From a virus: a stretch of DNA of 64,000 nt. Below, piece by piece: positions 14,566 to 55,834 of the stretch (its first letter is position 1; every line of letters begins with the position of its first letter). Under the pieces are notes generated by a model that did no database searches, was not told the DNA's origin, and was given only the letters and a program-made list of their open reading frames with translations. Both the position numbers and the translations under genes were made by a program. Location: positions 38,066-102,065 of the IMG/VR virus record IMGVR_UViG_3300032291_002123; one strand, given 5' to 3'.

Positions 14566-14641
14566 AATGTATCACGCACCTCTGACATTCTGAGATAAAG
14601 AAAGACCCCAACCGAAGTCGAGGTCTTTCTTGGTTGTCCGA

Positions 14642-15190
14642 TTAGGCAACTCGGTTCTTGCTGTTGATTGGTTTGTATACCTTAGAGGTAGCGTTAGGCG
14701 CAGGTTTGTATCCATAGCGAGCAAGTCGGAATCGAATTGCCCCGTGAGATACGCCTAGTCGCTTTGCCAATCGGTAGAGCGTAACTCCATCTATGCTGTG
14801 CGCTTGGTTCAGCAAGCGAGTGTATTCCTCTGCCTCAGCACGATACCTAGGCGAGTGAGAGCGAACCTGTTGCGCTAGCGGTTGTAGTTCGAGCAGACGA
14901 GTTAGAATCTCGTCAGACGGCTCAACATACTCACGCTTGATTTTCTCAGGGTGGAATGGTGGTGTCGGAATGATGTAGTCGTCTCCTAGTTCAAGACCGG
15001 GAGATTTCATTTCGATAATCTGTCGGATACGCTCACGAGAGATACCGCAAGCATTTGCGATTGATTGAAGTGTCCAACCCATCGCTCTCAACTTGCGAAC
15101 ATACTCGTTGCGCTCGTCTCCGTCTTTGATTGTAAGAATCTTTGCTCTTACCTCAGGCGGTAGAGTGATTTGTCTTTTCATTTGGTTCAT
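14642..15190 (-). CDS. Double HTH protein (sigma70 region-4-like first HTH)
   Basis: WTLQSIANACGISRERIRQI and VTLYRLAKRLGVSHGAIRFRL. Confidence 0.75.
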   Translation of the reverse strand: MNQMKRQITLPPEVRAKILTIKDGDERNEYVRKLRAMGWTLQSIANACGISRERIRQIIEMKSPGLELGDDYIIPTPPFHPEKIKREYVEPSDEILTRLLELQPLAQQVRSHSPRYRAEAEEYTRLLNQAHSIDGVTLYRLAKRLGVSHGAIRFRLARYGYKPAPNATSKVYKPINSKNRVA

Positions 15191-15266
15191 TTGTCTGTCC
15201 TTATGTTGTTGTTTCTAGTTTAGATGGTTTGTTCAGTTCGTCAAGAGTTGTATGCTCTTGGCTAAC

Positions 15267-15635
15267 TTAGTCAATAATCAATTTCACCTTGTCATCTCCA
15301 TCAAAGACGGCAAGTAAGGTTGCTTCATCAACCACGCCCGTGATTTGTAATCCGTTTTTCTCTTGGAATAACATAATGTCGCTCTTAGTAGCATCACCGA
15401 ACCAGCCCTCTTTGTCTTTGAGAGCAAGTGTGAAGCCCAACTCGGCAAGTCTCTGCTGTAAGTAGTAGACACTCACCGAACGCTTAGAGATTGGGTTCTT
15501 GAATACAATCGCAGATAGGCGAACCTCAGCGATGTCGTCAAGTTTTATCCCAGCCTCAACCAATTTCCGCTCTTGGTGAGCATAAACTTGGTCTAAGGAT
15601 ACGGGAATAGGCACTTTGTATCGCTTTTCGGTCAT
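15267..15635 (-). CDS. Peptidoglycan-binding domain protein
   Basis: VYYLQQRLAELGF...GWFGDATKSDIMLFQEKNGLQITGVVDEATL (PG_binding_1 pattern). Confidence 0.8.
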   Translation of the reverse strand: MTEKRYKVPIPVSLDQVYAHQERKLVEAGIKLDDIAEVRLSAIVFKNPISKRSVSVYYLQQRLAELGFTLALKDKEGWFGDATKSDIMLFQEKNGLQITGVVDEATLLAVFDGDDKVKLIID

Positions 15636-15805
15636 TCAGACCTCTGTGCGAGGATTGATGCCACGATAGCCCCAGAAGCAAGGGAAATCACTAAATTAGT
15701 GGCTCCGGGAGCCAAAATAGCCACAAAAATAGCCAAAATCGTCAAAAATACAGCAAAAATGGCACTCCAAACCACATTTTTCAGCAAAAATCGCAGTTTA
15801 TTCAT
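15632..15805 (-). CDS. Small two-TM membrane protein (57 aa)
   Basis: Manual translation MNKLRFLLKNVVWSAIFAVFLTILAIFVAILAPGATNLVISLASGAIVASILAQRSE; AAGGAG RBS; stop overlaps the next ATG. Confidence 0.65.
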   Translation of the reverse strand: MNKLRFLLKNVVWSAIFAVFLTILAIFVAILAPGATNLVISLASGAIVASILAQRSE

Positions 15806-15973
15806 CTTTTTTCTCCTTTTTAGAGGTCGGCAGCACTACCCCAAGCAAAGGGCCGCTGTTTTTCCACGCATTTTGTTTCTTTATTATGATTTTCTGTATA
15901 ACATAATACAAACCTCCATAAATAGCAAGCAATCCGAGCAGAGATAGCACGATAATTAGTTCCATTTGAGTTC

Positions 15974-16969
15974 CTAACTCCTAACCAATGTATTCGAGTA
16001 GATGTCTTTGACAACATTTGCCCAGATTCTAGGCGTGTGGGTCTCGGCTTGGTATCCGCCAGCCCCGCCAATCAACACTCGCCCCTTACAATGCTTGTTA
16101 GCAAGGTCAGCGACAACACTTGAAGCATAGCGGTAGCCATCGTAGGTGTATTTCAAGCCCCAGCCCTCGCCCTCGTGTCCATCTGCCCCTGTTGCGAGCA
16201 GAATTACATCAGGCTCATACTCGTCAATCTTTTCGGCAATCAGGTCAATAGCCCAAGCCAACGCCTCGTCGCCCTCTCCTCGCTGTAAGTTGAAGTTATA
16301 CCAATGCTTGTCAGGGTCAGAGTATTCGTAGTTGCCTAGGTCATCCATCCCTCGCAACCAAGTGTCTGAGTGAACAGGGTAGACTCCGTGTCCGTGAATC
16401 GAGAAGGTGGGTATGTCCGTATCCTCTAAGAGATTCTGAACGCCGTCGCCAGCGTTTACATCCCAATCGATGTAGGCAACTTTCAAGCCAGCCTTACGAA
16501 ACTCTTTCGCAGCCCAAGCGAAGTCATTGAATACACAGAAGCCCTCAGACCAGCCGTATTGTGCGTGGTGTTTAGCACCCTGTGGATTGAAGCCAACCTG
16601 AGTTTCGCCAGCAATCATTTTCTCAACAAGGCGAGCAGTTCCAGCGAACATCTGAAAGGCGGTGTTGCCCATCTCTGTGCGCTTTCCATCCCAATCGTGA
16701 GACACTCCCTTATCAATTACCTCGCTCACGAACTTAGGGTCGTGGATAGTCTCCAACGCCTCCCTATCGCCATCACGGATTTCGGGTTCGATAATCTCCA
16801 CATTATCCGCACCAAGTTCCTCGGTAATGTATTGGGTAGCCAACTTAGCCCTAATCGGTTTCGTAGGGTGCGAGCCATCGCCAGAGCCTAACTGCCATTT
16901 GAGGTAGTCGTCGCTGTAAGCGATTGTTAGTTTATTTGGGTATGTCAATCTGTCCTTTTTTTCTTTCAT
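15974..16969 (-). CDS. Histone deacetylase / AcuC-family Zn-dependent deacylase
   Basis: HP.KP.R, GAKHHA...GFCVFND, YIDWDVNAGDGVQ, SIHG, GADGH, GGAGGY. Confidence 0.9.
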   Translation of the reverse strand: MKEKKDRLTYPNKLTIAYSDDYLKWQLGSGDGSHPTKPIRAKLATQYITEELGADNVEIIEPEIRDGDREALETIHDPKFVSEVIDKGVSHDWDGKRTEMGNTAFQMFAGTARLVEKMIAGETQVGFNPQGAKHHAQYGWSEGFCVFNDFAWAAKEFRKAGLKVAYIDWDVNAGDGVQNLLEDTDIPTFSIHGHGVYPVHSDTWLRGMDDLGNYEYSDPDKHWYNFNLQRGEGDEALAWAIDLIAEKIDEYEPDVILLATGADGHEGEGWGLKYTYDGYRYASSVVADLANKHCKGRVLIGGAGGYQAETHTPRIWANVVKDIYSNTLVRS

Positions 16970-17240
16970 CGTGTTTCTAAGTTATCAAATAAACTAGAAA
17001 AAGTCAAGTTTTGCGTGGAAAATCCTTGACCCTTTGTAATAAGCCTTATGTAATAACTTAGTCTCCGAGGTGTTCGTGCCTATCGTGCTTGTTCAGCCAA
17101 TCGGTAAGCCAGAATAAGCCAGCCAGCATTATGACGATAGAGCCAATAACAGCACCAAAAATTAGTAGAGTTTCCATAGCCATAATCTAGCATAAAAGAA
17201 ACCCCCTGACATAAGTCAAGGGGTCGTGTCTTTTTAGGGT

Positions 17241-17486
17241 CTAGCCCTCCACAGAAGCCTCATAGAAAGGCGGAAGTGGTTGAGTTGATGCCAGAGCCTT
17301 GCCGAACTTTTCTATCGCCAAGCAGGTGTCAGCAATCCAAGTGTCGTAAAGCACCTTGTCCACACCTGAGTGGGCTTCGTTCTTTTTTGCTTTCAACTCG
17401 GTAAGCGAGAACAAAAGAACGCTTTTCATAAATTGTAGTTCTTGGGTCTCGAACTCTACTGAGGTTGAGGTTTTTGTTTCTGTCAT
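17241..17486 (-). CDS. Hypothetical protein
   Basis: RBS, co-oriented, followed by a hairpin at 17201-17224. Confidence 0.65.
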   Translation of the reverse strand: MTETKTSTSVEFETQELQFMKSVLLFSLTELKAKKNEAHSGVDKVLYDTWIADTCLAIEKFGKALASTQPLPPFYEASVEG

Positions 17487-17500
17487 TTCTTTCTCCGTTT

Positions 17501-17929
17501 CTAGTTGTTTTTGTTGTTTAGGTAGTTGATGTAGCCGTCGCTGTTGATTTCTGCCTGATACTCGTCGGCATACACCCTCGGGTTAGTTTCTACTCTTGGG
17601 TAAGCACAGGTAGAGCAAAGGTCGTAGTCGATGTCAATCCCAACTCCGCAAACGCACTTGCGCTCCTCCAACTCCTCGGGTTCGGGTTCGATGTCTCGGG
17701 TATCGCCCTCGTCGATAATCGGGTTAGCCAATCGCTCTCGCTCATACTCCTCACCCTGAGCAACTCCAACCTCGTAGCCCGTGTCATAGGCGAGGTCGAA
17801 AATCATACGGGTGTTGTAGAGGTGTAGGTATGGTTCGGTCTTGTTATACCAATCCCAGAACGCAGCCTCTCGCACTCGTGCTTTTCGGGTGCTTACATCT
17901 AGGAAAGCGTTTACTTCGTCTTGTGTCAT
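17501..17929 (-). CDS. Hypothetical protein (CxC...CxxC)
   Basis: AAAGGA RBS; acidic; Cys pairs. Confidence 0.65.
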   Translation of the reverse strand: MTQDEVNAFLDVSTRKARVREAAFWDWYNKTEPYLHLYNTRMIFDLAYDTGYEVGVAQGEEYERERLANPIIDEGDTRDIEPEPEELEERKCVCGVGIDIDYDLCSTCAYPRVETNPRVYADEYQAEINSDGYINYLNNKNN

Positions 17930-18283
17930 TTTTGTCCTTTCTACAATACTAGGTTAGTCCGTGTCGAAGTGTTTGTCAAGTTCACTCGCCAAATAATTTA
18001 CGGCAATCGCAAGAATTAGGAAACACCCACCGATTAGCAGATTTGAGAATACAAGAGCATAACCAAAAGTTCCGCTAAACAGGATTGCCAGAGCAACTCC
18101 TCGAAGTAGGATTACCAATCCCTCCCGATTGTTCTTGCTCACTTGTTCCTCTGCGGTCTGCTCTTGGCGATTTGATTTATAGCCCAAGCAAAAGCCAACG
18201 CCCCAGATACAATCAGCCCAATAGCAGCCACTAAAAGTAGTTCTCTCATTTTGTCCTTTCGTCGTTTCTATGTTAGCACATTA

Positions 18284-18550
18284 TCACAGATAAGGCAACA
18301 TACCAAGCCGTCTCGACAATTCTGCCTCACATTGCGTTGAGAGGTCGCCAAAGACCTCCTCAGCGTTCGGGATAGTTCCTGACCTGTCTAGGTAAGTAAT
18401 CCCAGCGATAAGGCTCACGAGAGTGTTTACCGAGAACTCAATCTCATTGTCAAAGTCTAAAAATCCAGCGGTGAAGTTGTCGTTCACTCGATTGACAAAG
18501 GCGACGATTTCGTCGTCTGTCATTTCGGTAATGCTTTTTTCGGCAGCCAT
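18284..18550 (-). CDS. Hypothetical protein
   Basis: GAAAGG RBS; co-oriented. Confidence 0.6.
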   Translation of the reverse strand: MAAEKSITEMTDDEIVAFVNRVNDNFTAGFLDFDNEIEFSVNTLVSLIAGITYLDRSGTIPNAEEVFGDLSTQCEAELSRRLGMLPYL

Positions 18551-18661
18551 AGTAAGCCTTTCTTTGTTTATTATTTTAGCAGATTATTCTGCGTGGAAAA
18601 TCCCCTACCCTTTACGACAGAGCCGAACTCTCGCTCGGCTTGTCGGTGGGTGGGTGTATCC

Positions 18662-18880
18662 TTACCCGAAAAGATTTTTCCAGCAGGGTGGGCAATACCC
18701 TGATTGGAAACGCTCACGCTGGTCGGCGGTGAGATTAGGGAAAGCGTTTTGTATCAACGCCCCCTGATTGTAATCGAACAGGTTCTTGGAACTGACCTCA
18801 ACCTGAATAGTTCCCTCACACTTAGGGCAAGGCTTAGAGGTTGCGAGATACTCGCCCTCTTTGATTTTCTCGAACTTCAT
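18662..18880 (-). CDS. Small zinc-binding hypothetical protein
   Basis: CPKC...IQNAFPNLTADQRERFQSGYCPPCW; AAGGAG RBS. Confidence 0.7.
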   Translation of the reverse strand: MKFEKIKEGEYLATSKPCPKCEGTIQVEVSSKNLFDYNQGALIQNAFPNLTADQRERFQSGYCPPCWKNLFG

Positions 18881-19042
18881 TTTGCTCTCCTTTTTATTTT
18901 CTAACTAAACACGAACTCGGTAAACTCGCCAAGCGAGATTTCGCCACGGATAAGTTGCCATAGCAAAAGTGTCTGCCTCTTTTTTCGTAGCGAACTGATA
19001 AGGCTGAACACCTTGACCACGAACCTCAATAACCCAAATCAT

Positions 19043-19531
19043 TTACACCAACTCCTGTTCATCTTGTAAAACCACAAGCGAGACCACGCCTCGCTCTTTG
19101 ATTGGGTAGAACCCATACTGACCACGAGCAAAGTGGTAGTAGACATTAGCCAACTTGTAGCCCTTGCTCTCGTAGAACTTTTGCTGTTTGCCGTAAGAAT
19201 TAGCAACCGAAACATTGACCCACGATACAGAACCATCTGGGTTGTTTACTCGCCACACCTTGCCATACTTGCCGTCTACAATTTTTGCGTCTACGACATT
19301 ACCCTCCAAGTCGAGCAAAGCGTTTTCGTAATCAACGCCGTGATTGCGAGCCAAGCGAGCCTCACGGATGTGTTCACGATACATACCCTCGTGATAAAAA
19401 GCGTAGCCGTCGTTATCCAAAATACGCTGTTTGTCTAACTCAACAGCGTGAGCGTTCTGCTCACACTCGACAGCGTGAGCCTCCCACTCTTGTGGCGAAA
19501 CTCCCTCACGATACCAAATCGAAACTGACAT
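19043..19531 (-). CDS. Hypothetical early protein
   Basis: Own hybrid promoter and GAAAGGAG RBS. Confidence 0.7.
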   Translation of the reverse strand: MSVSIWYREGVSPQEWEAHAVECEQNAHAVELDKQRILDNDGYAFYHEGMYREHIREARLARNHGVDYENALLDLEGNVVDAKIVDGKYGKVWRVNNPDGSVSWVNVSVANSYGKQQKFYESKGYKLANVYYHFARGQYGFYPIKERGVVSLVVLQDEQELV

Positions 19532-19583
19532 TTGTATCTCCTTTCACTAAAATAGTATCAAAGACTACTGACATTTGTCAAGT

Positions 19584-20033
19584 CTAAAAGCCATTGTTTT
19601 TCGCACAGACAGGGCCGATACCCTCGGCAACGCTCTTAGGGTCTGTCAGGAAAATACCGCAGACACAGCACATACCTGTTTCCATACCAAAAGCCTTAGC
19701 CTGTTCCAGCGACATTTTGTGTTCTGGTTTTAGGCGATAGATAGCCCCAGCCTCATACTCGAAACCGCCCTCTAATGCGTTCAGTTTCTTAGCGTAAAGA
19801 CGGCTACTCATTTTGCTCGGGTGAACTCGGTAGATGTCGCCGTTCGGCATACGATACATACCAACCTCGCCGACAATTCCAGCAGCCCGAGGTGCTTTTA
19901 GTAGCGAACCGATTAGGTCGCTAGCGTCTTTCGAGGTGAGAACCTCAAAGTTGATTTCCTCGCCATTGTAGACACGCTCGGTTAGGAGTTTCTCGATGAA
20001 CTCCACCTGTCGAACTGATACCTTGTTAGCCAT
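19584..20033 (-). CDS. DUF6011-like zinc-ribbon protein
   Basis: GMCCVCGIFLTDPKSVAEGIGPVCA C-terminus. Confidence 0.75.
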   Translation of the reverse strand: MANKVSVRQVEFIEKLLTERVYNGEEINFEVLTSKDASDLIGSLLKAPRAAGIVGEVGMYRMPNGDIYRVHPSKMSSRLYAKKLNALEGGFEYEAGAIYRLKPEHKMSLEQAKAFGMETGMCCVCGIFLTDPKSVAEGIGPVCAKNNGF

Positions 20034-20263
20034 TTGCTATCCTCTCTCTCTTACAACTAAAAGATAGCACACCCCCCTGACATTTGTCAATTCCTATTAG
20101 GCGTGTCGCTTATGTAATTATTTTGCCAGGCGGTTGCTAGGCTGCCTCGCTCAAAGGGTGGGGCTTTTTCCACGCAAAACCAGCCAAAAATAAAAGATAG
20201 TTAGCGTAAGTAATAAAAAAAGAACCTTGCCTCTCGGCAAAGTTCTTTTTCGTGTGGTTCGGT

Positions 20264-20497
20264 TTACTCCTGCGAAAGTCGCTCGTTCATTAGAGCCAAG
20301 ACCTGTCGGCTGTGAGCCAGCACTTCGGTAAGCCTCTCGACCTCGCTGTGTATTTTTAGGTCAATCACCTTTTGGGATAACTTGACCAATCCCTCCATAA
20401 TTTTTATCTGCTCTGCCATAGCCCATACGATAGCCTCTCGTGGTGCGTTGGCGATTGTGGTTTCCCACTCCTCAATCGAGGTTAGTTGTTTTGACAT
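20264..20497 (-). CDS. Hypothetical protein
   Basis: Start re-set to MSKQ after an AAGGAAG RBS; terminator at 20221-20250. Confidence 0.6.
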   Translation of the reverse strand: MSKQLTSIEEWETTIANAPREAIVWAMAEQIKIMEGLVKLSQKVIDLKIHSEVERLTEVLAHSRQVLALMNERLSQE

Positions 20498-20557
20498 AAC
20501 TTCCTTTGGTTGTTTCGGCAAGGGGGAGATGTTCTCAATCCCCCGAGCCAAGTTTTT

Positions 20558-20767
20558 TTATTTAGCGTTTGCCCAAGCAATCGCTTTGTTGATTAGAGGT
20601 AGGCAAGCCATAAAGACCAGCCAAGAGAAATACATCACGAGCAGGTTATCCCACACGCCAGCACTTCCCGGTTCCGCACCCAGAGCCATTAGCAATAGGT
20701 TTAGAACGACATAAGCCAGAAAAATTACAGGAAAGAAAATCGTTCCTCGAACTAATCGCTTTATCAT
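20558..20767 (-). CDS. Small two-TM membrane protein
   Basis: Two hydrophobic segments; GAAAGGA RBS. Confidence 0.65.
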   Translation of the reverse strand: MIKRLVRGTIFFPVIFLAYVVLNLLLMALGAEPGSAGVWDNLLVMYFSWLVFMACLPLINKAIAWANAK

Positions 20768-20813
20768 TTTTGTCCTTTCGACATTTCTAAGGTATCAAAC
20801 CACTCGGCTTTTG

Positions 20814-21098
20814 TCAAGCGTTGTAGTAAGACCAATTTCGGTGGATTTCCTCTTGCTCGTATTCACGAATACATCTCGCACAATGTTGCTCGTCGTCTTT
20901 CGTGCTGAAAGCAATTTCCTCACCGCAGTTCGCACAGCCCATTTCGGTAGGCGTAGGTTCGTGAGGTGCGTTTCCGTCTGCCTCCTCACAGATTGTTTCG
21001 TCGCCCCACACCTTGTCGCTAATCCAAATGCTCGGCGATACTTCTGTGATTACCTCTCCACAATGTAGGCACTCGTTTTTCTTGGTCATAGTTATCAT
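20814..21098 (-). CDS. Cys-rich hypothetical protein
   Basis: Several CxxC pairs; own TGTCAG-N10-TACCTT promoter. Confidence 0.6.
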   Translation of the reverse strand: MITMTKKNECLHCGEVITEVSPSIWISDKVWGDETICEEADGNAPHEPTPTEMGCANCGEEIAFSTKDDEQHCARCIREYEQEEIHRNWSYYNA

Positions 21099-21119
21099 CT
21101 CCTAATTTCTAAGGTAGCA

Positions 21120-21401
21120 CTACCTACTGACATACTCGGTTTCCAATACTTCTGTTAGTAGTCGGTCATAGTCGTATTCACCCAAACGGAAACCAGCCTC
21201 GACAATAATCTCTGCCAACTTCACGCCCAAGCCATCTGCGACAGATTGGATTACTTCGCTCGACATCTCTTTTACGCCACGCTCTACTTCGCTTAGGTAG
21301 CCGATAGAGACATTTGATTTGGCGGATAGTTGTCTTAGTGTCCAGCCTCTCTGCGTTCGTAGGTCTCGAACTACATCACCTACGGCAACTCGCAACATCA
21401 C
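21120..21401 (-). CDS. clgR: ClgR-like XRE-family transcriptional regulator
   Basis: LRVAVGDVVRDLRTQRGWTLRQLS....VSIGYLSEVERGVKEMSSEV closely follows the actinobacterial ClgR consensus (LRE.IGDVLR..R..QGRTLREVS..ARVSLGYLSEVERGRKE.SSE). Confidence 0.7.
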   Translation of the reverse strand: MMLRVAVGDVVRDLRTQRGWTLRQLSAKSNVSIGYLSEVERGVKEMSSEVIQSVADGLGVKLAEIIVEAGFRLGEYDYDRLLTEVLETEYVSR

Positions 21402-21805
21402 GACCAAACACCAGCCAAATACTTTTCGGCGGCTAGGTTTGCCTTTTCAGCAAAATCGATTGCCACATCTAGTTCGTGAAAAGGTTCGCTGAACCACTCG
21501 GTATCTGTTTCGTGTAGAACTACGAACCAAGAATTATTTACCCAACAAAAAACTTCCTCGTCTTTGCCAGACCAATCGCTAAGTTCCTTGTCGGTCTTGA
21601 TACCGAACTCCTCTAACTTATCGGTGTAGCGGATTACTTCGTCGTGTCCATTTTTATTCACAGCGTTGATACGCATTTCACCCTCACGATAAACCGCAAA
21701 AGGATTGTCCTCGCTTGACCACACCAATTCAGTTCCAACTTCGTTGGTGTAGAACGCACTATCCTGTCGCTTTGGGTCAGTTCCGTATTTCGTCAGTTTT
21801 GTCAT
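21398..21805 (-). CDS. Hypothetical protein
   Basis: AAGGAG RBS; translationally coupled to the ClgR-like gene. Confidence 0.65.
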   Translation of the reverse strand: MTKLTKYGTDPKRQDSAFYTNEVGTELVWSSEDNPFAVYREGEMRINAVNKNGHDEVIRYTDKLEEFGIKTDKELSDWSGKDEEVFCWVNNSWFVVLHETDTEWFSEPFHELDVAIDFAEKANLAAEKYLAGVWS

Positions 21806-21991
21806 TTTGTTTTTTCTCCTTATAGATAGAACTTGTCGTCAAACTTTTGCGAGGATAAAAGTCGAAACTCCACTAACTTTTTTCCATTTAGTTTTGACCG
21901 AACGATTTTTTTCTCTGCGTGTTTCTGCGTGTTGGCGATAAGCGATACTTGTCGTATTCGTGGAACGCCGATGATTTCGTAGGTGTAGAGG

Positions 21992-22270
21992 TTAGCCACT
22001 ATTGATACCCCTCTCGGTGAAAATCTCCAAGTGATAGTTCTCCAAGAGGATTGACGCAGGGGCTTGGTTAGAGCCAGCAACGCTGTATCCACTCGGCAAC
22101 TCAATCAACGCCTCTGGGTTGCCAGCGATAGTTTCCTCAACTGCTTTTAGGCAAGCAGGGTAGAGAACCTCGTTGATTGGCTCATAGAAATTGGTTGATA
22201 GGTGTAGCGAGATTTTCTTGTCTAATGGCAAATCGCTAGTTGCTATGCCTATGGCATTTATCAATCCCAT
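21992..22270 (-). CDS. Hypothetical protein
   Basis: GAAAGGA RBS; HL..NFY.PI...C..A...HL motif. Confidence 0.65.
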   Translation of the reverse strand: MGLINAIGIATSDLPLDKKISLHLSTNFYEPINEVLYPACLKAVEETIAGNPEALIELPSGYSVAGSNQAPASILLENYHLEIFTERGINSG

Positions 22271-22318
22271 AATTGTCCTTTCGTCTTTTTCATCTCTTAC
22301 CTAATTAGGTTATCAGGT

Positions 22319-22537
22319 TTATTGCTCTGTGTCAATCTCGGTAGAGTTCGGCACTTGTCCTACAAAGGTCAGCATAGGACCTGCGTAGGTTGGGTCGTTC
22401 ACGAGGTTCGAGAAATACGACACGAGTTCCTTAGAACTCTCTGCCACAAACTTGACGGCACTCGCCTCGTCTGTGATTGTGCCAGACTTCTCGACCTCGA
22501 ATACGAACTCGACATTTACTTTGTAAGTTTCAGCCAT
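22319..22537 (-). CDS. Hypothetical protein
   Basis: Co-oriented, RBS. Confidence 0.6.
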   Translation of the reverse strand: MAETYKVNVEFVFEVEKSGTITDEASAVKFVAESSKELVSYFSNLVNDPTYAGPMLTFVGQVPNSTEIDTEQ

Positions 22538-22580
22538 TTTATTTCCTGCTTTCAGTTGGTTCTATTTTACACCAACTGCC

Positions 22581-23063
22581 TTATGTGATTAGTGAGTTTA
22601 GGTGAATACGAGCATCAAGGTAGATGTCCTCGTTTTCTCCTTCTCCAACGCTCTCCCACTCCTCGCTTTCCTTGTTCCAAACATCAGCACTACCAAACAA
22701 AGCCTCTGCTCTGTCGTCGTCTAGGAAAGTAATAGTTGGCTTGCCGTTGTTCATCTCTACCGCAACCACGAAATAAACCTGCTTGGTGTCTGGGAAATCC
22801 ATACCAAACAGACTTTCGAGGCTGTCGTATTGGTCAAGATTTTCATCAAGCCACTCCTCGAACTCCTTGGTGTATTCGGTATCGGTGATTAGCCAATTAC
22901 CATCATTGTAAGAATTATCCTTGCTCAATTCCAGCCATTGTTTAGTTCCTCGCCAGAGGAACGCAACACTTCGCTTTTGATTGTCGGCGTAGTCCTCAAC
23001 GCTTTTGATTTCTACATCTGGGATAAATGCGTTGTTGGGTGTTGCGTAAATGTCGTATGTCAT
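22581..23063 (-). CDS. Acidic hypothetical protein
   Basis: AAGGAG RBS; coupled to the upstream ORF. Confidence 0.65.
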   Translation of the reverse strand: MTYDIYATPNNAFIPDVEIKSVEDYADNQKRSVAFLWRGTKQWLELSKDNSYNDGNWLITDTEYTKEFEEWLDENLDQYDSLESLFGMDFPDTKQVYFVVAVEMNNGKPTITFLDDDRAEALFGSADVWNKESEEWESVGEGENEDIYLDARIHLNSLIT

Positions 23064-23257
23064 CAGTACTCCTTCTGTTCGATTGTTTCCGTGCCACCAA
23101 GAAACTCGAAGTCGTCTTGGTCGTGTTTTAGTAGAACCATACCGAAATCGGCTAGGTCAGCATTTCCAAAGAAAATGTGGAAGTGATTGAGAGCAACTCG
23201 TGGGTCGTCTGCCTCAACTTCATACTGCTCTGTTTTTGTAATTACAAATGTCGCCAT
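23063..23257 (-). CDS. Hypothetical protein
   Basis: GAAAGGA RBS with a TTGACT promoter upstream. Confidence 0.6.
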   Translation of the reverse strand: MATFVITKTEQYEVEADDPRVALNHFHIFFGNADLADFGMVLLKHDQDDFEFLGGTETIEQKEY

Positions 23258-23317
23258 TGTTATCGTGTCCTTTCCTTGACATTTCTAGGTTAGCAAATTA
23301 TGTGCGATAAGTCAATC

Positions 23318-23590
23318 TTATTTACGGCGTGGTCTGCCACGACCAGCCTTGATGTTTCGGCAGATTATCTCGGCTCGTGGTGCGAACCACTTGTCGAGTT
23401 CCTCTGGGTCAAAGAGAATAACATTGTTAGTAGTTCGAGCGACTTCCTTTGGTCTGGTAGTCGAGTTCTCGTCATAGTTCACAAAGTAGAGAACTCTCGC
23501 AGCACTAATGTCGTATTTCTTGGCGAGGTCTTTGTAAGACCAGAGTTGCTTTCCATCTAGGAAATAAGTAATTCGTTTTTCGAGTTTCAT
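23318..23590 (-). CDS. Small basic DNA-binding protein (winged-HTH/excisionase-like)
   Basis: WSYKDLAKKYDISAARV...LFDPEELDKWF...GRGRPRRK; hybrid promoter and RBS. Confidence 0.55.
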   Translation of the reverse strand: MKLEKRITYFLDGKQLWSYKDLAKKYDISAARVLYFVNYDENSTTRPKEVARTTNNVILFDPEELDKWFAPRAEIICRNIKAGRGRPRRK

Positions 23591-23738
23591 TTGTATCCTT
23601 TCTACATTACAGAGTATGCCACACACCCCTGACATTTGTCAAACTCAAAGGGTAGCGAGTTTTCCACGCAAATCCACGCAAAAAAAATAAAGCATAAAAA
23701 AGCACCCCGACTTTCGTCGGGGTGGGAAGCGACTTATC

Positions 23739-24062
23739 TCACTTTACGAGAGAAATAAAGTCGTAAGGGTTCTCATACGAAGCGGCTTCAAACGCTTCTG
23801 GGAACGCACTTTTCAGCACATCACGCTTCAAATCGACACGGCTTCTGCGCTCAATCTTGAACGCTGGAACACCGCCGACATTAGCGAACTCCGCTTTTCC
23901 AATCGCAGAACGGAGAACCTGTTCAGCAACAGCCTTGCGAGCCTTTGCTTCCTTTTCCGCATTTGCGGCTTCGGCAAAGTCAGCAATCGCCTTGCGAACT
24001 TCGGGGTTGAACCCAACTTCAACCGAACTTCCTGGAACAAAAGCAACTAATACTTTCGACAT
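23739..24062 (-). CDS. Hypothetical protein, paralog of 29227-29550
   Basis: Start re-set to MSKV after a GAAAGGAG RBS; 107 aa, collinear with the paralog. Confidence 0.8.
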   Translation of the reverse strand: MSKVLVAFVPGSSVEVGFNPEVRKAIADFAEAANAEKEAKARKAVAEQVLRSAIGKAEFANVGGVPAFKIERRSRVDLKRDVLKSAFPEAFEAASYENPYDFISLVK

Positions 24063-26257: not shown

Positions 26258-26258
26258 T

Positions 26259-27518: not shown

Positions 27519-27767
27519 TTAGACAATCTCAAAGGTGAGGTCGTCGAGCAAGCCAGCGAAGTCTGGGTGGCTCTCCTGCCACTCCTGAAACTCCTCCATT
27601 TCCTCCCTAGTCCATTTACCCTCTGGGTCAATGGCAATCACCTCGTAGCCCTCTCCCTCGGCGTAGGCAAACTTGTAGTAAAAGTCCTTGCCCTTATAGG
27701 TCGCAATTCCTTTTCTTGTCCAAGCGTTAGTTTCCTCGCTCACGCTGACGATTTTGATTTCGCTCAT
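27519..27767 (-). CDS. Hypothetical protein
   Basis: Translationally coupled; AGGAG RBS. Confidence 0.6.
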   Translation of the reverse strand: MSEIKIVSVSEETNAWTRKGIATYKGKDFYYKFAYAEGEGYEVIAIDPEGKWTREEMEEFQEWQESHPDFAGLLDDLTFEIV

Positions 27768-27955
27768 AGGTATTCTCCTGTTTTCTCTACTGTGATTTCT
27801 AGAACATCAAGCGTTCCAATGTCTATGCCGTCGTAGGCTAGTTTGTCCTCGGCTTGACCTATCGGCAACTCGTCGTTCTCCTCTGCCACATAAGCCAGCG
27901 TGGTTATAGAGCAATTCTCTAACGAGAACCGCACTTCGTATTCGTGGGTTGTCAT
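27764..27955 (-). CDS. Hypothetical protein
   Basis: ATGA overlaps on both sides. Confidence 0.6.
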   Translation of the reverse strand: MTTHEYEVRFSLENCSITTLAYVAEENDELPIGQAEDKLAYDGIDIGTLDVLEITVEKTGEYL

Positions 27956-28245
27956 TCCTTCTCCTCTGCTAGTTTGTCGGTTTCGGCAAGCAAGCGATAC
28001 TGCTCTGCCACATCATTCGGGTCGGCAACTTCGGTAGCACCGCACTCCTCGCACTCGTTTAGGTTTCGGTCTGTCCAAAGAACCCAAGTGTGATACTCGC
28101 ACTCTTGGTCGTAGTCCAGCAGAACCTCTTGGCAATCTCCGCACTCAACGGCAACATTCACTGGGTCGCTTGGGTCGCCGTAAGTATTGACACTCACTTT
28201 ATGACCAGCGTGAGCAACCAATTCCGCAAAATTATTTACGCTCAT
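27952..28245 (-). CDS. Zinc-binding hypothetical protein
   Basis: HAGHKV...NVAVECGDCQEVL...CEECG; own promoter. Confidence 0.65.
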   Translation of the reverse strand: MSVNNFAELVAHAGHKVSVNTYGDPSDPVNVAVECGDCQEVLLDYDQECEYHTWVLWTDRNLNECEECGATEVADPNDVAEQYRLLAETDKLAEEKE

Positions 28246-29082
28246 TTTATTTCTCCTTTTCTCTCCAACACTTTTACTATACTGCTAGCCTCTGACACTC
28301 GTTCGGCGGTCTATCTCTGTCGGGCAATACTCGACGGGAAAGCCAGCGTGGTCGTGCGACCACAATCCGTCAAGCACGAGATACGACGAGGTGATACGCA
28401 ATCCGCACTCGGCACATTCGCCGAACCACACACGATTATCTTTTCGGTATCCATCTCCGGGATTTAGAACCGAGAAGTTTGTGCCTAATCCTTTTTCCCG
28501 GATTGACTTCACATTTATTTCTGTCATTTCATCTCTCCCTATCCCAAGTGGATAAACGCCCGAAACTTTTTCTCGCAATTCCAGCAAAGGATTTTGCCAG
28601 ACCAACTCGTGATGAACTTTGGTTGCTTTTTACCGAACGATACTCCGCACTTTTCGCACTTGCTAGCACTCAACGATTTGTGGTTCACGAACGAAATTGC
28701 CATTTGATTTCTCCTAATCTTTCCGACACTTTTAGGGTATACCCACCCTCTGACACTCGACCTACTCGCTGTCGAAAATACAATGGCTACGAACCTCGAC
28801 CACGAAATCCTTGCCAGCGACTTTGCCACCGAACTCTTTTAGTCCGTAGACATAAGAACGAACCTCGACTTCGGTAAAGAACTCTCGCTCGATACCACTC
28901 GACAATTTGACAACCCACGACACAGCACCAACGCTCATAGTGCCTCCCTTCACTTCTTACGATACGGCAATTCTCCACTTATGTCAAGAGAAACGCCGTA
29001 AGTTTTTAGAAAGTTTTTTCGGCAAAGGGTCGGTGATTTTCCACGCACCAGAGGCAAAAAAAGATTGGAACTCTGCGACATA

Positions 29083-29218
29083 AGAAAATCCCCTATCACG
29101 AAAGGGGGGGGGGGTGTGATAGGGGATTTCTTTTACTATCGGGGGAGAACCTCGGCAGGTATGTTATCTAGAAAGGGGGGGGGATTAGATAACGGCGTTG
29201 AGGTCGTCAGCCCGATAG
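29083..29218 (-). ncRNA. 6C-like small RNA / 3'-UTR element: two hairpins with C9 and C11 loops
   Basis: gttatcta-atCCCCCCCCCtttc-tagataac nested in longer stems, then cccctatcac-aCCCCCCCCCCCtttc-gtgatagggg followed by a U-tract. Confidence 0.6.
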
Positions 29219-29226
29219 CCTCGGGG

Positions 29227-29550
29227 CTACTTTACAATAGCCACGAAGTCATACGGGTTCTCGTAAGACGCTTTTTCCCAAGCCTCTGGGAAAGCGGTTT
29301 TGAGAACATCTCGTTTGAGGTCGGTGCGGTTTCGGTGTTCGATTTTGTAGACGGCAACTCCACCCACAGTTGCGAACTCGGCAAGTCCGATTGCTTTACG
29401 CAGAACTTCCTCGGCTTGTGCCTTCTTAGCCTTCGCCTCTTTTTCGGCGTTGCTCGCCTCGGTAAAGTCGGCGATTGCCTGTCGAGCCTCGGCACTAAAT
29501 CCAACTTCTACGGAAGTGCCTTTTACAGTAGCGGTAATAGTCTTTGACAT
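29227..29550 (-). CDS. Hypothetical protein, paralog of 23739-24062
   Basis: Shared SVEVGF...AIADF.EA.NAEKEAKA...R.DLKRDVLK.AFPEA.E.ASYENPYDF. Confidence 0.8.
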   Translation of the reverse strand: MSKTITATVKGTSVEVGFSAEARQAIADFTEASNAEKEAKAKKAQAEEVLRKAIGLAEFATVGGVAVYKIEHRNRTDLKRDVLKTAFPEAWEKASYENPYDFVAIVK

Positions 29551-29663
29551 CTCACCACTCCTTTCATTTTGTCATTTCGGTTTTGTGGGAACTCCCACAT
29601 TTCTAGGGTAAGGGATACAATCCCTTTTGTCAATTCCAAACACGGCGTGTCGGAAAAGTTTTT

Positions 29664-29972
29664 TTATCCAACTACATCTTGGAAAGTCTGGGCAACTGCC
29701 TCGTCAAGAGCCTCGACCAACTCGGCAATCTTGTCGTCTGGCAAATCACGAACTAGGTCAAGGGTGATTTCAGATTTCCACACCACAACCTTGTCAGCGT
29801 TCGCCAATCGGAAATCTCCGAGAGCCTCGGCAACTCCGCAAGCAGAACAAATCTCGGTCTTGTTATCGGCACGAGAAATCGCTCCGGGATACGCCCCCGG
29901 GTTTTCGTTGCTTGGTATGTAGCCAGAACACTTCGGGCAACGAACCAAGTCTTTGTCATAAGCATCGCTCAT
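29664..29972 (-). CDS. Zinc-binding hypothetical protein
   Basis: Start re-set to MSDA after GAAAGGAG; CPKC...YPGAISRADNKTEICSACG. Confidence 0.7.
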   Translation of the reverse strand: MSDAYDKDLVRCPKCSGYIPSNENPGAYPGAISRADNKTEICSACGVAEALGDFRLANADKVVVWKSEITLDLVRDLPDDKIAELVEALDEAVAQTFQDVVG

Positions 29973-30226
29973 TTTGTATCTCCTTTCACTTCTGATTGTG
30001 CCAGAGTATCGAACTTTTGTCAAGTCTATTTTGACATTTTTCCAAACTTTTTTTCGGCGACCATCTCGATTTTTTTGTGTGTCAATTCCACGATACCAAG
30101 ACCCTCTGACATTGGGCGAAAGTCGTTTTGACATAAGCGAAAAGTATTTCCGGGATTAGCCCGGTTTTGCGTGGAAAATCGGCAACCCTTTACAAAAAAG
30201 GATTGGCTCTCGCCAATCCAATTTTG

Positions 30227-31988: not shown

Positions 31989-32045
31989 TTACATCATCTC
32001 CTCAATCTTGATTGTGCCATAGTTTGTTTTGTTTGTCAAGTCCTG

Positions 32046-32921: not shown

Positions 32922-34925
32922 CTAGCCGTTTCGCTTGCCAGCGGTTGTCAATGCTCGGGCCGCTGATTCGCCAATCATCGTCGAGATTGACCCTGCGGTT
33001 GCACCTCGCTTGATTTCGACATACACCGCATCCGTTCCTCTTATGTGATAAGGGATGAAGTCATTCCCACCACCCTCGAACCCGAGCCAGAGAACTGCCA
33101 CGCCGTTCCGTTGGCACGAGGCTAGCCAATGCTTTACCTGCTCTCGTTCCTCCTGCGTGTAGTATCCGTCAGACACAATCACGAGCAGTCTCGCACCCGA
33201 GCCGTGAAGTAGATTCATCGAGCCGTCAATCGCCTTGAACGCCTTGCCGAACTTCTCGGTGTTGTCTCGTGCCGTATACACATTCACATCGGTGAGGTGC
33301 TGTCCCGGCTTGAGAGTGGCGAACACATCGTTGCCGTAGTAGACCATAGATGCCTTGCCGTGAACTCGTCGAACTGCCTCTGACATAACCCAAGCGGTAG
33401 TCGCCATTGGTTGCATCGCCTCGCCCATCGAGCCAGAGATGTCCACCATAATTCCGACATTCAGTTCTGGGTTGTCTGTGTGCTTGCGCTTGGTCGCTCT
33501 CCAAGGTTCGACCTTGGCATTGACACCATTCGCTTTATAGGCTGCTCTCTGAACCATCGCACGAGAACGCAGACGACCTACTGGCAACTCGCTCGTAATC
33601 TCGACCTGCGAACGCTCACGATACTTTGCCTTCTCGAGCAGTCGTGCAACACGAACTGCACTCGCTCGTTCCTCGCCAGTTGGTTTACGAACCTCGACCA
33701 GTTTTGAGTTGGTTGCTAATCCATCAGAAGGACCTGTGCCACGACCAAACACTTCAGTCGCAACATCCTTGTGCTGTTTCGCCTCTTTCGCTGAATCTGC
33801 CTTGTCCTTGGCAATCTCTTTCCACTCCTCTGATTCAATCTGTTCCTCTGCATCAGAACGAGATGAAATCTCGGCGTTGTCCTTTGCCTCGTTCAAGGCA
33901 TCGAGCATCTCTTTGATAAGGTCTTGCTCGGCAGAAGTTGAACCTGAACCAGAACCTGAATCAGAACCCTCCTCTGATTCGCCAGATTCTGAATCGCTAG
34001 AACCTGAACCTGAACCAGTCTCACCAGATTCTGAATCGCCAGATTCTGATTCGCCAGAACCAGAACCAGTCTCGCCAGTTGGAGATGGAGTTCCTGAACC
34101 AGATTCTGATTCGCCCTTCTCACCAGTCGGCGATGGAGTTGGGTGGCAACCGGGGTGAGGTGAGTTTCCAGTCTCGCCCTTTTCTGCTTTTGTCTCGTTG
34201 ATAACTTTGACCCACTCACGAGCGAGGTCGTAAAGTTTTGTCGCATCAGCGTGAAGGTCGTGCGCTTGGAACTCAATCCAAATCGCACGAAGTTTTGCAA
34301 CGACATCTGCACCAAGAATCTTTTCGAGAACAGGAACAACAGGTTCGACATCACTCTCGTCAAGAACACCTGCATCAACTCGAGCGAGGGTTAGAGCAGC
34401 GAGGAAAGATGCACCTGCAACATTAGTAATCTTTGCAACTTGGTTTTCCAAATCTGCAACCACGATGTGCAACGCAGATGAACGCAGAAAAACTTTGTTC
34501 TTTGGATTCGTGCGAATACCAAAAGCCTCGATACGACCCTCCTCCAAATTGAACAGCGCACCAAACTCGTCTCGAGTTAGTTCTGCTTGTGCTTGTTCGA
34601 TTGACCAGCGTGAGAATCGAGCGTGGAGTGCCTCGTGGAAAATTGCGCCAGTCGCAACTGGGTGAGCAAGTTGATTGATTCGCTTAGTGAGGTCTCCAAC
34701 CTCGGCAGGTTCGATGTTGCCAAAAGCAACTTTTGTATTTACTTCAATCTCGGCACTTCGTGGTGAGAACGCAGCCGGGGCACCAGACACAGTTGTCTCG
34801 CCCAAGTTCACTACTAGGTCGTTTCGGAACGACCAGTCATTGACCAGCGCACCAATCTGCGCCCCTGCTCGTAGCCATTCGCTAGGTGTTGATTTTCTTG
34901 TCTCGGCAATTCCATAGTGAGCCAT
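32922..34925 (-). CDS. vWA-domain protein with N-terminal HExxH metallopeptidase-like domain (CobT/vWA-MoxR partner)
   Basis: FHEALHAR...NLEEGRIE; long G/S/E linker; MIDAS DISGSM, T, VSDG. Confidence 0.85.
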   Translation of the reverse strand: MAHYGIAETRKSTPSEWLRAGAQIGALVNDWSFRNDLVVNLGETTVSGAPAAFSPRSAEIEVNTKVAFGNIEPAEVGDLTKRINQLAHPVATGAIFHEALHARFSRWSIEQAQAELTRDEFGALFNLEEGRIEAFGIRTNPKNKVFLRSSALHIVVADLENQVAKITNVAGASFLAALTLARVDAGVLDESDVEPVVPVLEKILGADVVAKLRAIWIEFQAHDLHADATKLYDLAREWVKVINETKAEKGETGNSPHPGCHPTPSPTGEKGESESGSGTPSPTGETGSGSGESESGDSESGETGSGSGSSDSESGESEEGSDSGSGSGSTSAEQDLIKEMLDALNEAKDNAEISSRSDAEEQIESEEWKEIAKDKADSAKEAKQHKDVATEVFGRGTGPSDGLATNSKLVEVRKPTGEERASAVRVARLLEKAKYRERSQVEITSELPVGRLRSRAMVQRAAYKANGVNAKVEPWRATKRKHTDNPELNVGIMVDISGSMGEAMQPMATTAWVMSEAVRRVHGKASMVYYGNDVFATLKPGQHLTDVNVYTARDNTEKFGKAFKAIDGSMNLLHGSGARLLVIVSDGYYTQEEREQVKHWLASCQRNGVAVLWLGFEGGGNDFIPYHIRGTDAVYVEIKRGATAGSISTMIGESAARALTTAGKRNG

Positions 34926-35060
34926 TTAGCCACCAGTCCTTTCATCTCTACTTCTCAATTATTGCAAAATCTCTGACTAATGTCAAGTCCTTCTTTGGTG
35001 TGTCTGGGGCGATGGGATTGGAGACCACCACCCCAGACGAACACGAATCTAGGGAAGGAA

Positions 35061-36071
35061 CTAGATTCGTGCTGGCTTGACTTCCTCGCCGAACGCACGA
35101 CTGAAAACATCGGCAACGACTGGTCTGTCAAGTTCTGGTGCGCTAGCAAGCAAGTTGCTAATCGCAAACGAAGTTCCGAACAACTCGGCGAGGTCTCGGA
35201 AAGCGAGAACTTCACGCATCTGCGGAGACCACGACACTTCATCACTCGCTTGCTTTTTCGCAAGATTCTGGCTGGCAGTAATCACAACAGCAGGAACGCC
35301 CAACTTACGAGCGATAGTCCAGTCAGTAGTCATTTCTGCTTGAACAGAGAATCGAGAGAGCAACGCCTCGGAGAGAACAACTCCCGGTGCATTGGGGTTC
35401 GTTGCACTAACCACAAAGAATCCATCCTTGGCTTTTACTGTGCCACGCTCCGGGTTTTGAGTGATAGTGATTTCACCACGACCATCCATTAGTCCATAGA
35501 CCAACGAAAGAACTTTCGGGTCTACCAAACCAATCTCGTCAATCAGGAGAACTTTACCCTCCTCGACTGCACGAACGAGAGGACCATCAATCCACTCGAA
35601 CCCACCACTTGCAGTCTGAACATAACCACCAACGAAGTCTGCAACTTCGGTGTCGCCAGTTCCAATGACTGTGTAGAGGTCGTCGCCAAAAGCAGCCTCG
35701 AGCATCGCAGTCTTACCAGTTCCCGGTGCGCCATAAAGCAGAACATACTTCTTGGCATCACGAGACTTGCGAATCACTTCGATGTCGGCGTGTTCAGTAT
35801 TACCCCACTTGCGAGAAGTGTAGGTCTCACCATTAGGTCGAACATAAACTCCTTCACCACTAAGTGCCTCTGCCACGATGGTTTTCACCCTCTTTGTAGT
35901 TCCTGAATTGTCTCGCACACGAATGACTGCACGACCAGATGCCTCGTCGAAAAACTTGTCAAGCGATGCATCTAATTCTGCATTTAGTTTTTGACCACTA
36001 ACTGCAAACAGAGCCTCGGAAAGTTCTTTCGAGAATCGTTCTTGGTCGATAATTACTTGTTGTCTATTCAT
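35061..36071 (-). CDS. MoxR/CbbQ/CobS-type AAA+ ATPase
   Basis: GAPGTGKT, DGPLVRA, LLIDEI, ATNP, LSEALLSRF. Confidence 0.9.
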   Translation of the reverse strand: MNRQQVIIDQERFSKELSEALFAVSGQKLNAELDASLDKFFDEASGRAVIRVRDNSGTTKRVKTIVAEALSGEGVYVRPNGETYTSRKWGNTEHADIEVIRKSRDAKKYVLLYGAPGTGKTAMLEAAFGDDLYTVIGTGDTEVADFVGGYVQTASGGFEWIDGPLVRAVEEGKVLLIDEIGLVDPKVLSLVYGLMDGRGEITITQNPERGTVKAKDGFFVVSATNPNAPGVVLSEALLSRFSVQAEMTTDWTIARKLGVPAVVITASQNLAKKQASDEVSWSPQMREVLAFRDLAELFGTSFAISNLLASAPELDRPVVADVFSRAFGEEVKPARI

Positions 36072-36086
36072 TGTAATCTCCTCCTA

Positions 36087-36587
36087 TTACGCTGATACTG
36101 CTACTGAATTGAAAAGTGATTCGCCCCACGAGAGTGCTTTACGAGAACGCTCGATTCGACGATAGAGACCATTCGGAGTTTTTCCGTCTCGAATGTTTGC
36201 CAAGTCCTCGTAAGAAAACTCAACTGCGAGTGGTCGCTGATACAAAGTCCAACCTTGTGCATACAACTGATTGAACTGGTGAGCGATTGCGCTAACATTC
36301 TGCCCAGCGTGTTCTTGTGCTTGGTCGAGTTCCAATGGCTCGAACTCACCATAAGCATCACGAGATGGTGCTGGATAAGTTAGTGGGCCATTGTTCTTGT
36401 CGATTGTCCAGTTTCGACGAGGGTGGTAAGTAGAGATTCGTCTGCGTAGGTTTGCAAACGGAACTACTTCATTCTCCAGCGTGATTGCCCAAGGGGTGAT
36501 AATCATCTGGTAGGTGTATACATCCTTGCGGAACTCCAAGTAGAGTGCCTTCCCGGCTGCATCCTTTTTGGTTTTTAGAGTTGTCAT
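36087..36587 (-). CDS. Hypothetical protein
   Basis: First gene of the AAA/vWA operon; RBS and TTGACT promoter. Confidence 0.7.
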   Translation of the reverse strand: MTTLKTKKDAAGKALYLEFRKDVYTYQMIITPWAITLENEVVPFANLRRRISTYHPRRNWTIDKNNGPLTYPAPSRDAYGEFEPLELDQAQEHAGQNVSAIAHQFNQLYAQGWTLYQRPLAVEFSYEDLANIRDGKTPNGLYRRIERSRKALSWGESLFNSVAVSA

Positions 36588-36665
36588 TTTTTCCTTCCTT
36601 CTAACTCTTACTTACTAATTGAAACATAGTTTGATTCAAAAGTCAAGCGTGTCGCCAAACTTTTT

Positions 36666-37115
36666 TTAGTCAATTCGTGAATCTGCATAAGCCTCGATGC
36701 CAATCGCATTTAGGTGCTGAGATACTCCTCGAGCGACTTGCTCTTTGAGTTGTAGCGACTGTCGAGTTTGAGCGAACCCTTTACCATCGACCCAGAACTG
36801 CACGCCCTTGTAGCCACCACCCCATTGGTAGTGCTTGTATCCTTTACCAGTTTCGAGAATCCACTTAGCGAACGCAGAACGCCCATTCGGAACTACGACC
36901 CAAGCGAACCCACAAACTCCATCTGCTACGAAGTAGGTTTTTTTAGAGTAGTCGATGTCATTCCCGAGGGGAGTGGTTGGTGAACCCACAATCATAGGAG
37001 TGGGTGGAGTGGCTTTTGCCAATGCCTCGTGCGATACACGCTGGAGGTCTAGCCAAATCTGCTCGAACTTGCGCTGATTGGCAACGCTGACTTTTGCTTT
37101 TTTAGTGGTTGTCAT
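36666..37115 (-). CDS. Hypothetical phage protein
   Basis: GVCGFAWV...QSLQLKE...A...L...GI.....SRID; hybrid promoter. Confidence 0.75.
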   Translation of the reverse strand: MTTTKKAKVSVANQRKFEQIWLDLQRVSHEALAKATPPTPMIVGSPTTPLGNDIDYSKKTYFVADGVCGFAWVVVPNGRSAFAKWILETGKGYKHYQWGGGYKGVQFWVDGKGFAQTRQSLQLKEQVARGVSQHLNAIGIEAYADSRID

Positions 37116-37186
37116 TTTGTCCTTCCTTCTACTCTCTTATTATTGCATACACCTCTGACACTTGTCAAGGGTATTTTTAGGTGTGT

Positions 37187-55821: not shown

Positions 55822-55834
55822 TACCTTTCTGTCG

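Follow-up and report, generated by a model that had tools for sequence, protein, structure and literature searches.

TGTCRG-box promoters in a lake phage of actinobacteria resemble the PafBC-type promoter of recA

The DNA analyzed here, which we call the window, is a 64,000-nucleotide (nt) stretch of IMG/VR record IMGVR_UViG_3300032291_002123 (bases 38066-102065 of a 102-kb entry that is 76% complete), and it comes from an uncultured lake phage of actinobacteria. A block of small genes spanning about 23 kb of the window contains 14 promoters, all on the minus strand, in which the hexamer TGTCRG lies 10 nt upstream of the -10 element. These sites are promoters for the host RNA polymerase and its housekeeping sigma factor, SigA. 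Their box and spacing match those found upstream of recA in actinobacterial genomes and resemble the promoters of PafBC; this master activator governs the LexA-independent response of actinobacteria to DNA damage and works by the unusual mechanism of sigma adaptation. Our preferred explanation, to which we assign a probability of roughly 0.55, is that host RNA polymerase with SigA would read these promoters, that host PafBC would act at the box, and that fusion of the box to a -35 element would add a PafBC-independent route.

Promoters built around the TGTCRG box

The pattern TGTCRG-N10-TAnnnT occurs 13 times in the window compared to 0.73 times expected, a count reached in none of 100 shuffles, and 10 of these 13 strict matches are minus-strand sites in the interval 14566-30111. 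Over the whole 102-kb record, the 13 matches at N10 stand against 0, 1, 2 and 4 at N8, N9, N11 and N12, respectively. If the -10 element may begin with A, C or T, the minus strand of 14000-38000 has 12 matches versus 0.55 expected, and the head TTGAC[AT]-NN-TGTC[AG][GT] is found nine times versus 0.03 expected.

To arrive at the 14 promoters, each TGTCRG was read in its context, and sites whose -10 element is one base off TAnnnT were admitted; each promoter is named by the high coordinate of its box (Table 1). The hexamer is TGTCAG at 13 sites and TGTCGG at one. Five -10 elements deviate by one base (CATACT, CATAAT, AATAAT, GATACT, and TATAAG, which lacks the final T). The trinucleotide RGG directly follows the box at 12 of the 14 sites, and 10 have an extended -10 (TGn). 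The sites sit in intergenic gaps, often past a terminator, and lead into a ribosome site and an ATG, which at most of them lie 18-47 nt downstream.

The promoters fall into two classes of seven. In the fused promoters, TTGACA or TTGACT stands 2 nt before the box, and the spacer between the -35 and -10 elements is 18 bp in every case. The box-only promoters have no -35-like hexamer, which indicates that the box is conserved in its own right. About 11 box-less TTGACA-N17-TAnnnT promoters occur in the same block, and since their spacer is mostly 17 bp, the constant 18 bp of the fused promoters suggests that the box constrains their architecture. Throughout, TGTC[AG]G and the 10-nt gap stay constant while the surroundings vary, including at the seven sites with unrelated upstream sequence.

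A preliminary description of this DNA had proposed about 15 such sites in two tiers, with a nearly invariant 10-nt spacing. All of the sites that it listed are present (its coordinates fall about 5 nt inside each motif), and both the spacing and the two tiers are real features of the block. The count becomes 14 accepted promoters; one additional look-alike at 17211, which had not been listed, was rejected because it has an N11 gap, lacks a ribosome site and forms a terminator hairpin (-22.8 kcal/mol, z -4.1). We also rejected the reading of TGTCAG as an antisense -35 element (CTGACA on the opposite strand), as no conserved -10 element is found on that side. Two strict boxes on the plus strand share the hexamer TGTCGG, the same G/T-rich spacer and a TATnCT -10 element; they face antisense of minus-strand genes and may be antisense promoters or chance matches.

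Table 1. Promoters and other features of the window (positions are those of the window; aa, amino acids; ORF, open reading frame)
Name	Feature	Position	Strand	Sequence	Downstream gene or context
14587	Box-only promoter	14566-14587	minus	TGTCAG-AGGTGCGTGA-TACATT	Extended -10 (TGA)
19573	Fused (hybrid) promoter	19552-19581	minus	TTGACA-AA-TGTCAG-TAGTCTTTGA-TACTAT	162-aa gene (19043-19531)
20082	Fused promoter	20061-20090	minus	TTGACA-AA-TGTCAG-GGGGGTGTGC-TATCTT	149-aa DUF6011 gene (19584-20033)
21132	Box-only promoter	21111-21132	minus	TGTCAG-TAGGTAGTGC-TACCTT	91-aa gene (20814-21089)
23634	Fused promoter	23613-23642	minus	TTGACA-AA-TGTCAG-GGGTGTGTGG-CATACT	90-aa gene (23318-23590)
24121	Fused promoter	24100-24129	minus	TTGACT-AA-TGTCAG-GGGTCTATGA-CATAAT	107-aa gene (23739-24062)
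24301	Box-only promoter	24280-24301	minus	TGTCAG-GGGGTGGTGC-GATACT	Weak TTGTTT 1 nt upstream; 40-aa ORF (24132-24254)
25899	Box-only site	25878-25899	minus	TGTCAG-GGGGTGGTGG-TATAAG	Tandem, ~40 nt upstream of variant at 25808-25837
	Variant fused promoter (degenerate, outside the 14)	25808-25837	minus	TTGACA-AA-TGTCGT-AGGTCTATGT-CATACT	53-aa gene (25616-25777)
27149	Fused promoter	27128-27157	minus	TTGACA-AA-TGTCGG-GGGCTAGTGC-TACCTT	281-aa gene (26259-27104)
27375	Fused promoter	27354-27383	minus	TTGACA-GA-TGTCAG-AGGTATGCTG-TATTCT	57-aa gene (27160-27333)
28297	Box-only promoter	28276-28297	minus	TGTCAG-AGGCTAGCAG-TATAGT	97-aa gene (27952-28245)
28755	Box-only promoter	28734-28755	minus	TGTCAG-AGGGTGGGTA-TACCCT	54-aa gene (28539-28703)
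30111	Box-only promoter	30090-30111	minus	TGTCAG-AGGGTCTTGG-TATCGT	Tandem, ~100 nt upstream of ordinary TTGACA-N17-CACAAT promoter of 102-aa gene (29664-29972)
37160	Fused promoter	37139-37168	minus	TTGACA-AG-TGTCAG-AGGTGTATGC-AATAAT	149-aa gene (36666-37115)
	Degenerate variant	34958-34986		AGTCAG, N9	
17211	Terminator hairpin	17189-17219	minus	CCCCTTGACTTATGTCAGGGGG then TTTCTTTT	Contains TTGAC..TGTCAG by chance; U-run after
	Opposite-strand strict box	18641-18662	plus		
	Opposite-strand strict box	25194-25215	plus		
	TerL (large terminase)	12898-14286	minus		
	Histone-deacetylase family	15974-16969	minus		
	NlpC/P60 peptidase	24391-24996	minus		
	VWA/CobT-like partner	32922-34925	minus		
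	MoxR-type AAA ATPase	35061-36071	minus		
	tRNA-Leu(TAA)	55125-55198	minus		
	tRNA-Gln(TTG)	55834-55905	minus		
	tmRNA (transfer-messenger RNA)	57777-58112	minus		Tag AESRSAFALAA
	WhiB ORF	59258-59587			
	DUF7455	63227-63409	plus		

The genes downstream of the box promoters are nearly all of unknown function, and the block runs straight into the terminase. At promoter 14587 (14557-14587), an ATG lies 6 nt past the -10 element, and the transcript is probably leaderless; it would run directly into an 86-codon ORF reaching 14299, with TerL coming next. That a box promoter heads packaging genes argues against all box-driven genes being early. The proposal that these are early takeover genes is thus unsupported, given that most of them are without function by annotation and that the block extends to the terminase.

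Among the genes of the block with recognizable families are a histone-deacetylase family protein, a MoxR-type AAA ATPase with a VWA/CobT-like partner, and an NlpC/P60 peptidase. The block also contains a second repeated element, the bipartite box (A)AAGGGT-N6-TTTTCCACGCA, which is possibly a regulator site. Its 14 copies (15861-37968, both strands) are intergenic and usually follow a terminator. Four copies, all in one orientation, come shortly before a box promoter: two are 5-6 nt upstream of the -35 elements of 23634 and 27375, one is close to 24301, and one is some 70 nt upstream of 20082.

Likeness to the recA promoters of host-like genomes

The in vivo PafBC consensus is tGTCgg(N10)tA(N3)T, with the 5' part at -23 to -28 and no -35 element; PafB recognizes the GTC through R46 and R50, with PafC holding on to sigma region 4 (PMC8635444). 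Single-stranded DNA switches PafBC on (PMC11804915), and the PafBC-dependent (RecA-NDp) promoters of Mycobacterium and other Actinobacteria are used through sigma adaptation (PMC8635444, PMC11804915, PMC6789036). All 14 phage hexamers contain the GTC, which is nearly invariant in the -26 element of PafBC promoters, and the seven box-only promoters also share the lack of a -35 element, while the seven fused promoters have one. A -35/-10 pair at the 16-19 bp spacing of SigA promoters is found at the seven fused and the roughly 11 box-less promoters, but not at the seven box-only ones.

The recA upstream regions provide the closest natural comparison. In 19 complete genomes of 1.27-1.48 Mb and ~50% GC, from the class that holds Actinomadura, TGTCAG-TGGCGCCTGC-TACCTT precedes recA in every case, in the form TGTCAG-[TA]GG...TGC-TACCTT and with AGG after the box in one of the 19. 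At this position, 18 of 20 larger, high-GC members of the class carry TGTC[AG]G-N10-TAnnnT, followed by ACC, TGG or AGG, and TGTCAC-N10-TAnnnT is present in about 21 of the 24 Acidimicrobiales genomes with a locatable recA. Over all sampled actinobacterial genomes that could be scored, 58 of 63 have the box at recA. The phage sites TGTCAG-TAGGTAGTGC-TACCTT and TGTCGG-GGGCTAGTGC-TACCTT are within the natural range of these recA promoters, and the A form of the hexamer (TGTCAG) is common to the phage and the low-GC genomes.

The factor itself appears to be available in such cells. An adjacent pair of WYL proteins is encoded in five out of five small lake-type genomes, which we treat as host-like. 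In one of them (G379), the pair matches PafB (7p5x_AY, 4e-44) and PafC (7p5x_AX, 2e-26) of the solved M. smegmatis PafBC complex (7p5x), and both DNA-reading arginines are kept. Genomes carrying an unpublished flag underlie none of these results.

Two further observations concern the host-like genomes themselves. In the 19 small genomes, a LexA box (TCGAACAGATGTTCGGAT) directly follows the -10 element of the recA box promoter, an arrangement suggesting that an activator and a repressor act on one recA promoter. Separately, genome G349 contains a low-GC (44%) island at 430-462 kb with eight TGTC[AG]G-N10-TAnnnT sites, most of them with a start codon 6 nt after the -10 element. The sites stand before genes for an SNF2 helicase, a C5 DNA methylase, a NERD nuclease plus UvrD-like helicase, a TPR protein and an Rce1/Abi-like membrane protease, and the region looks like a PafBC-controlled defence or repair island. 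Clusters resembling it are also present in G302 and G334.

From the motif, its spacing, the gene positions and the identity with the recA box, we infer PafBC binding, its activation upon infection and the timing of expression as follows. Single-stranded DNA appearing in the infected cell would activate host PafBC. The helix-turn-helix of PafB would read the GTC of the box while PafC would hold sigma region 4, and this engagement would fire the seven box-only promoters. At the seven fused promoters, TTGACA at 18 bp from the -10 element would let sigma fire alone, and PafBC would constitute a second, mutually exclusive route.

The box in other phages and its candidate readers

An actinobacterial host is indicated by the WhiB gene of the phage. 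The window has a GC content of 45-50%. TerL is 77% identical to that of DSL-LC01, a metagenome-assembled Actinomycetia phage of Dishui Lake, and 62% identical to that of Big4-type Microbacterium phages; TerL relatives in IMG/VR number 472 and include complete genomes of 132-137 kb with terminal repeats. Near-identical DNA is present in 20 sequencing runs from many studies, all of DNA and mostly lake-water metagenomes. Nanopelagicales are by now represented by isolates and by phages (PMC10202952). Megablast of 12 kb of the phage against cultured phages gave zero matches, and BLAST of one promoter against them gave chance matches only. The phage also encodes a tmRNA and two tRNAs (Table 1).

The preliminary description had called for a search for a WYL activator encoded by the phage itself. 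The WYL domain (PF13280) was not found in this record, in five relatives (G001-G005; four complete, one ~90%) or in five box-bearing phages that were found through a scan for the fused head (G471-G475; four complete, one 83%), while control genomes gave matches.

The box itself extends beyond this lineage. Among the 84 occurrences of the fused head TTGACAAATGTCAGnGG in IMG/VR, TAnnnT follows at exactly N10 in 53 (1.6% expected by chance), often in the host form TGTCAGTGG. A second family of complete phages with the fused head (112-117 kb, 38-40% GC) has 10-15 strict boxes on one strand and no detectable homologue of the TerL studied here. A box that is common to two families without TerL similarity and identical to that of the recA promoter makes a host factor likelier than a lineage-specific phage protein.

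Several observations weigh against the PafBC explanation. As published PafBC promoters lack a -35 element, the fused form is outside that class as defined, and the fusion of a -35 element to the box occurs only once in the 19 host-like genomes (26 Mb). The flanks differ as well: position -1 is a purine and +7 to +9 read RGG in the phage, whereas the host-like genomes show a pyrimidine at position -1 with T at +7 in 42 of 70 matches. Host-like box promoters are often leaderless, and most phage ones have leaders of the length given above, which calls for caution. Among the 20 sequencing runs listed as containing the phage DNA, none is of RNA. Attempts to pin the host gave weak, mixed matches for a WhiB-based genome search, zero matches for the tmRNA by BLAST against 401 actinomycete genomes, and zero matches in 34 genomes for a 680-aa protein adjoining an NrdH-like gene.

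The phage family adds to these points. Counts of the box on the coding and opposite strands are 10/3 in this phage, while three of its relatives have 11/0, 8/3 and 7/3 and a further two have 3/2 and 1/0; the box thus varies within the family, and relatives G005 and G003 are without the TGTCAG box. No box enrichment is seen in the cultured relatives Big4, GMA2, GodonK and Mimi or in DSL-LC01. The syntenic small-gene block of DSL-LC01 (OQ999401, 223-19256, 57% GC) instead has 28 copies of GATTCTAAAG-NTGT-TATAAT, an element with neither a -35 nor TGTCAG, after which a conserved leader ends in ACGACGAAAGGACA. Orthologous genes in relatives carry different promoter types, and promoter positions are not conserved. 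Other boxes at a similar place in relatives imply that factor-specific boxes turn over quickly in this family.

Different promoter types were also noted in individual relatives. In G005, AATGTGCAGC lies about 16 nt before CCTGTTATAAT, and G001 and G002 have the type GGGAATAAAAA...GTTATAGT.

Taken together, the assignment to the PafBC regulon made in the preliminary description holds in part. The consensus, the recA boxes, the PafB and PafC homologues of host-like genomes and the negative search for a phage WYL protein agree with it, but the fused form does not belong to the class.

An unlikely alternative is that these are plain SigA promoters, in which TGTCAG-RGG is a spacer kept by descent through cassette duplication or by DNA shape, with no dedicated factor. 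The frequent extended -10, the seven consensus -35 elements and the box-less promoters of the same block are all compatible with this idea, and cassettes consisting of a gene, its own terminator and a promoter look shuffled between relatives. However, it leaves the fixed TGTC[AG]G and N10 amid varying sequence to be accounted for, as well as the same geometry in another phage family and at host recA, and the difference between fused spacers of always 18 bp and box-less ones of mostly 17 bp.

We consider it improbable that TGTCAG is read by a phage-encoded activator other than a WYL protein, or by a sigma-remodelling factor in the manner of T4 MotA/AsiA, with the likeness to PafBC promoters arising from convergence or coincidence. 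Co-evolution of box and factor would predict that relatives have boxes of their own, repeated to a similar degree and placed immediately before the -10 element in the same gene block, as is the case, and the phage flanks are consistently unlike those of host-like genomes. A presence/absence screen of nine phages returned DUF7455, a zinc-ribbon protein of 60-90 aa (CxxC...CxHH), as the sole gene whose distribution follows that of the box in both families: all seven box-rich phages in the comparison have it, and the two box-poor relatives do not. Cultured phages of Streptomyces, Microbacterium, Curtobacterium, Arthrobacter and Rhodococcus encode DUF7455 too, and we rejected it as the box reader because the cultured carriers Pumpernickel, Bmoc and Olliecat show no box enrichment. 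Ten profile-matched ORFs that were scanned contain no recognized DNA-binding domain. The box is shared by two families without TerL similarity, and it is improbable that hexamer and 10-bp gap would both match the host recA promoter by chance.

A more elaborate version of host control seems quite doubtful. Here, box-only promoters would fire only after PafBC senses phage DNA ends or replication, while the many copies of the box would titrate PafBC off host promoters. If so, the promoters of host recA and of the SNF2/methylase/NERD island would be starved and the defence response blunted, and the -35 fusion would have been invented by phages as a means of expressing these genes ahead of the alarm.

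Finally, the preliminary description had named a phage repressor that binds TGACA-N2-TGTCA. Such a repressor would shut the promoters in lysogeny or as a timed switch, and although the fused sites do contain this 5+2+5 inverted repeat overlapping the -35 element, such an operator is very improbable, as seven of the 14 sites have the right half only (no TGACA half), the repeat arises automatically from TGTCA being the reverse complement of the -35 core, and half-site centres 7 bp apart are close for a helix-turn-helix dimer.

Comparison with known systems

In the literature searched, we found no paper describing PafBC-type promoters on phage genomes; a 2025 paper is cited as reportedly linking PafBC to mycobacteriophage resistance. 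The present analysis adds a characterization of the -35 fusion, shows that this form is nearly absent from host-like genomes and present in a second phage family, and documents the alternative boxes of relatives. If host PafBC does act at the box, abundant lake phages would time or boost their genes via a borrowed host activator that senses single-stranded DNA, and the WYL-family sensors known so far from defence would turn out to be exploited by phages as well.

Compared to PafBC (RecA-NDp) promoters, the phage sites share the hexamer (tGTCgg/TGTCRG), its position at -28 to -23, the 10-bp gap to a SigA-type TAnnnT and, at the seven box-only sites, the absence of a -35 element. They differ in that about 14 copies occur within 23 kb, half of them fused to a consensus -35 element 2 bp upstream of the box, and in having RGG after the box where the host has TG. 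The phage promoters also lack the SOS box: none was found after them.

The middle promoters of T4 are alike in that an activator box upstream of a normal -10 element takes the place of, or competes with, the contact between sigma region 4 and the -35 element, and the T4 MotA box plus -10, with sigma appropriation by AsiA and MotA, is a comparison already named for PafBC (PMC8635444). Both T4 factors are phage-encoded and remodel sigma, whereas no phage factor was found here and the box is the same as the one used by a host activator.

Phages wired to LexA or RecA, through lambda-type repressor cleavage or LexA-controlled genes, work by relief of repression. The phage studied here is similar in that its programme would be coupled to a host DNA-damage signal starting from single-stranded DNA. 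It would, however, borrow an activator, and its LexA boxes are not above chance (five versus 3.4 expected). The arrangement would thus be a mirror image of the classic link between SOS and repressor.

With their 18-bp spacer, the fused sites qualify as the usual SigA promoters of actinobacteria (TTGACA-N17-TAnnnT, in many cases with an extended -10). They are set apart by the invariant TGTCAG fixed in that spacer, and the block by its seven sites without a -35 element. If the PafBC explanation is correct, the fused promoters would offer a natural test of the competition between sigma region 4 and PafBC on a single promoter.

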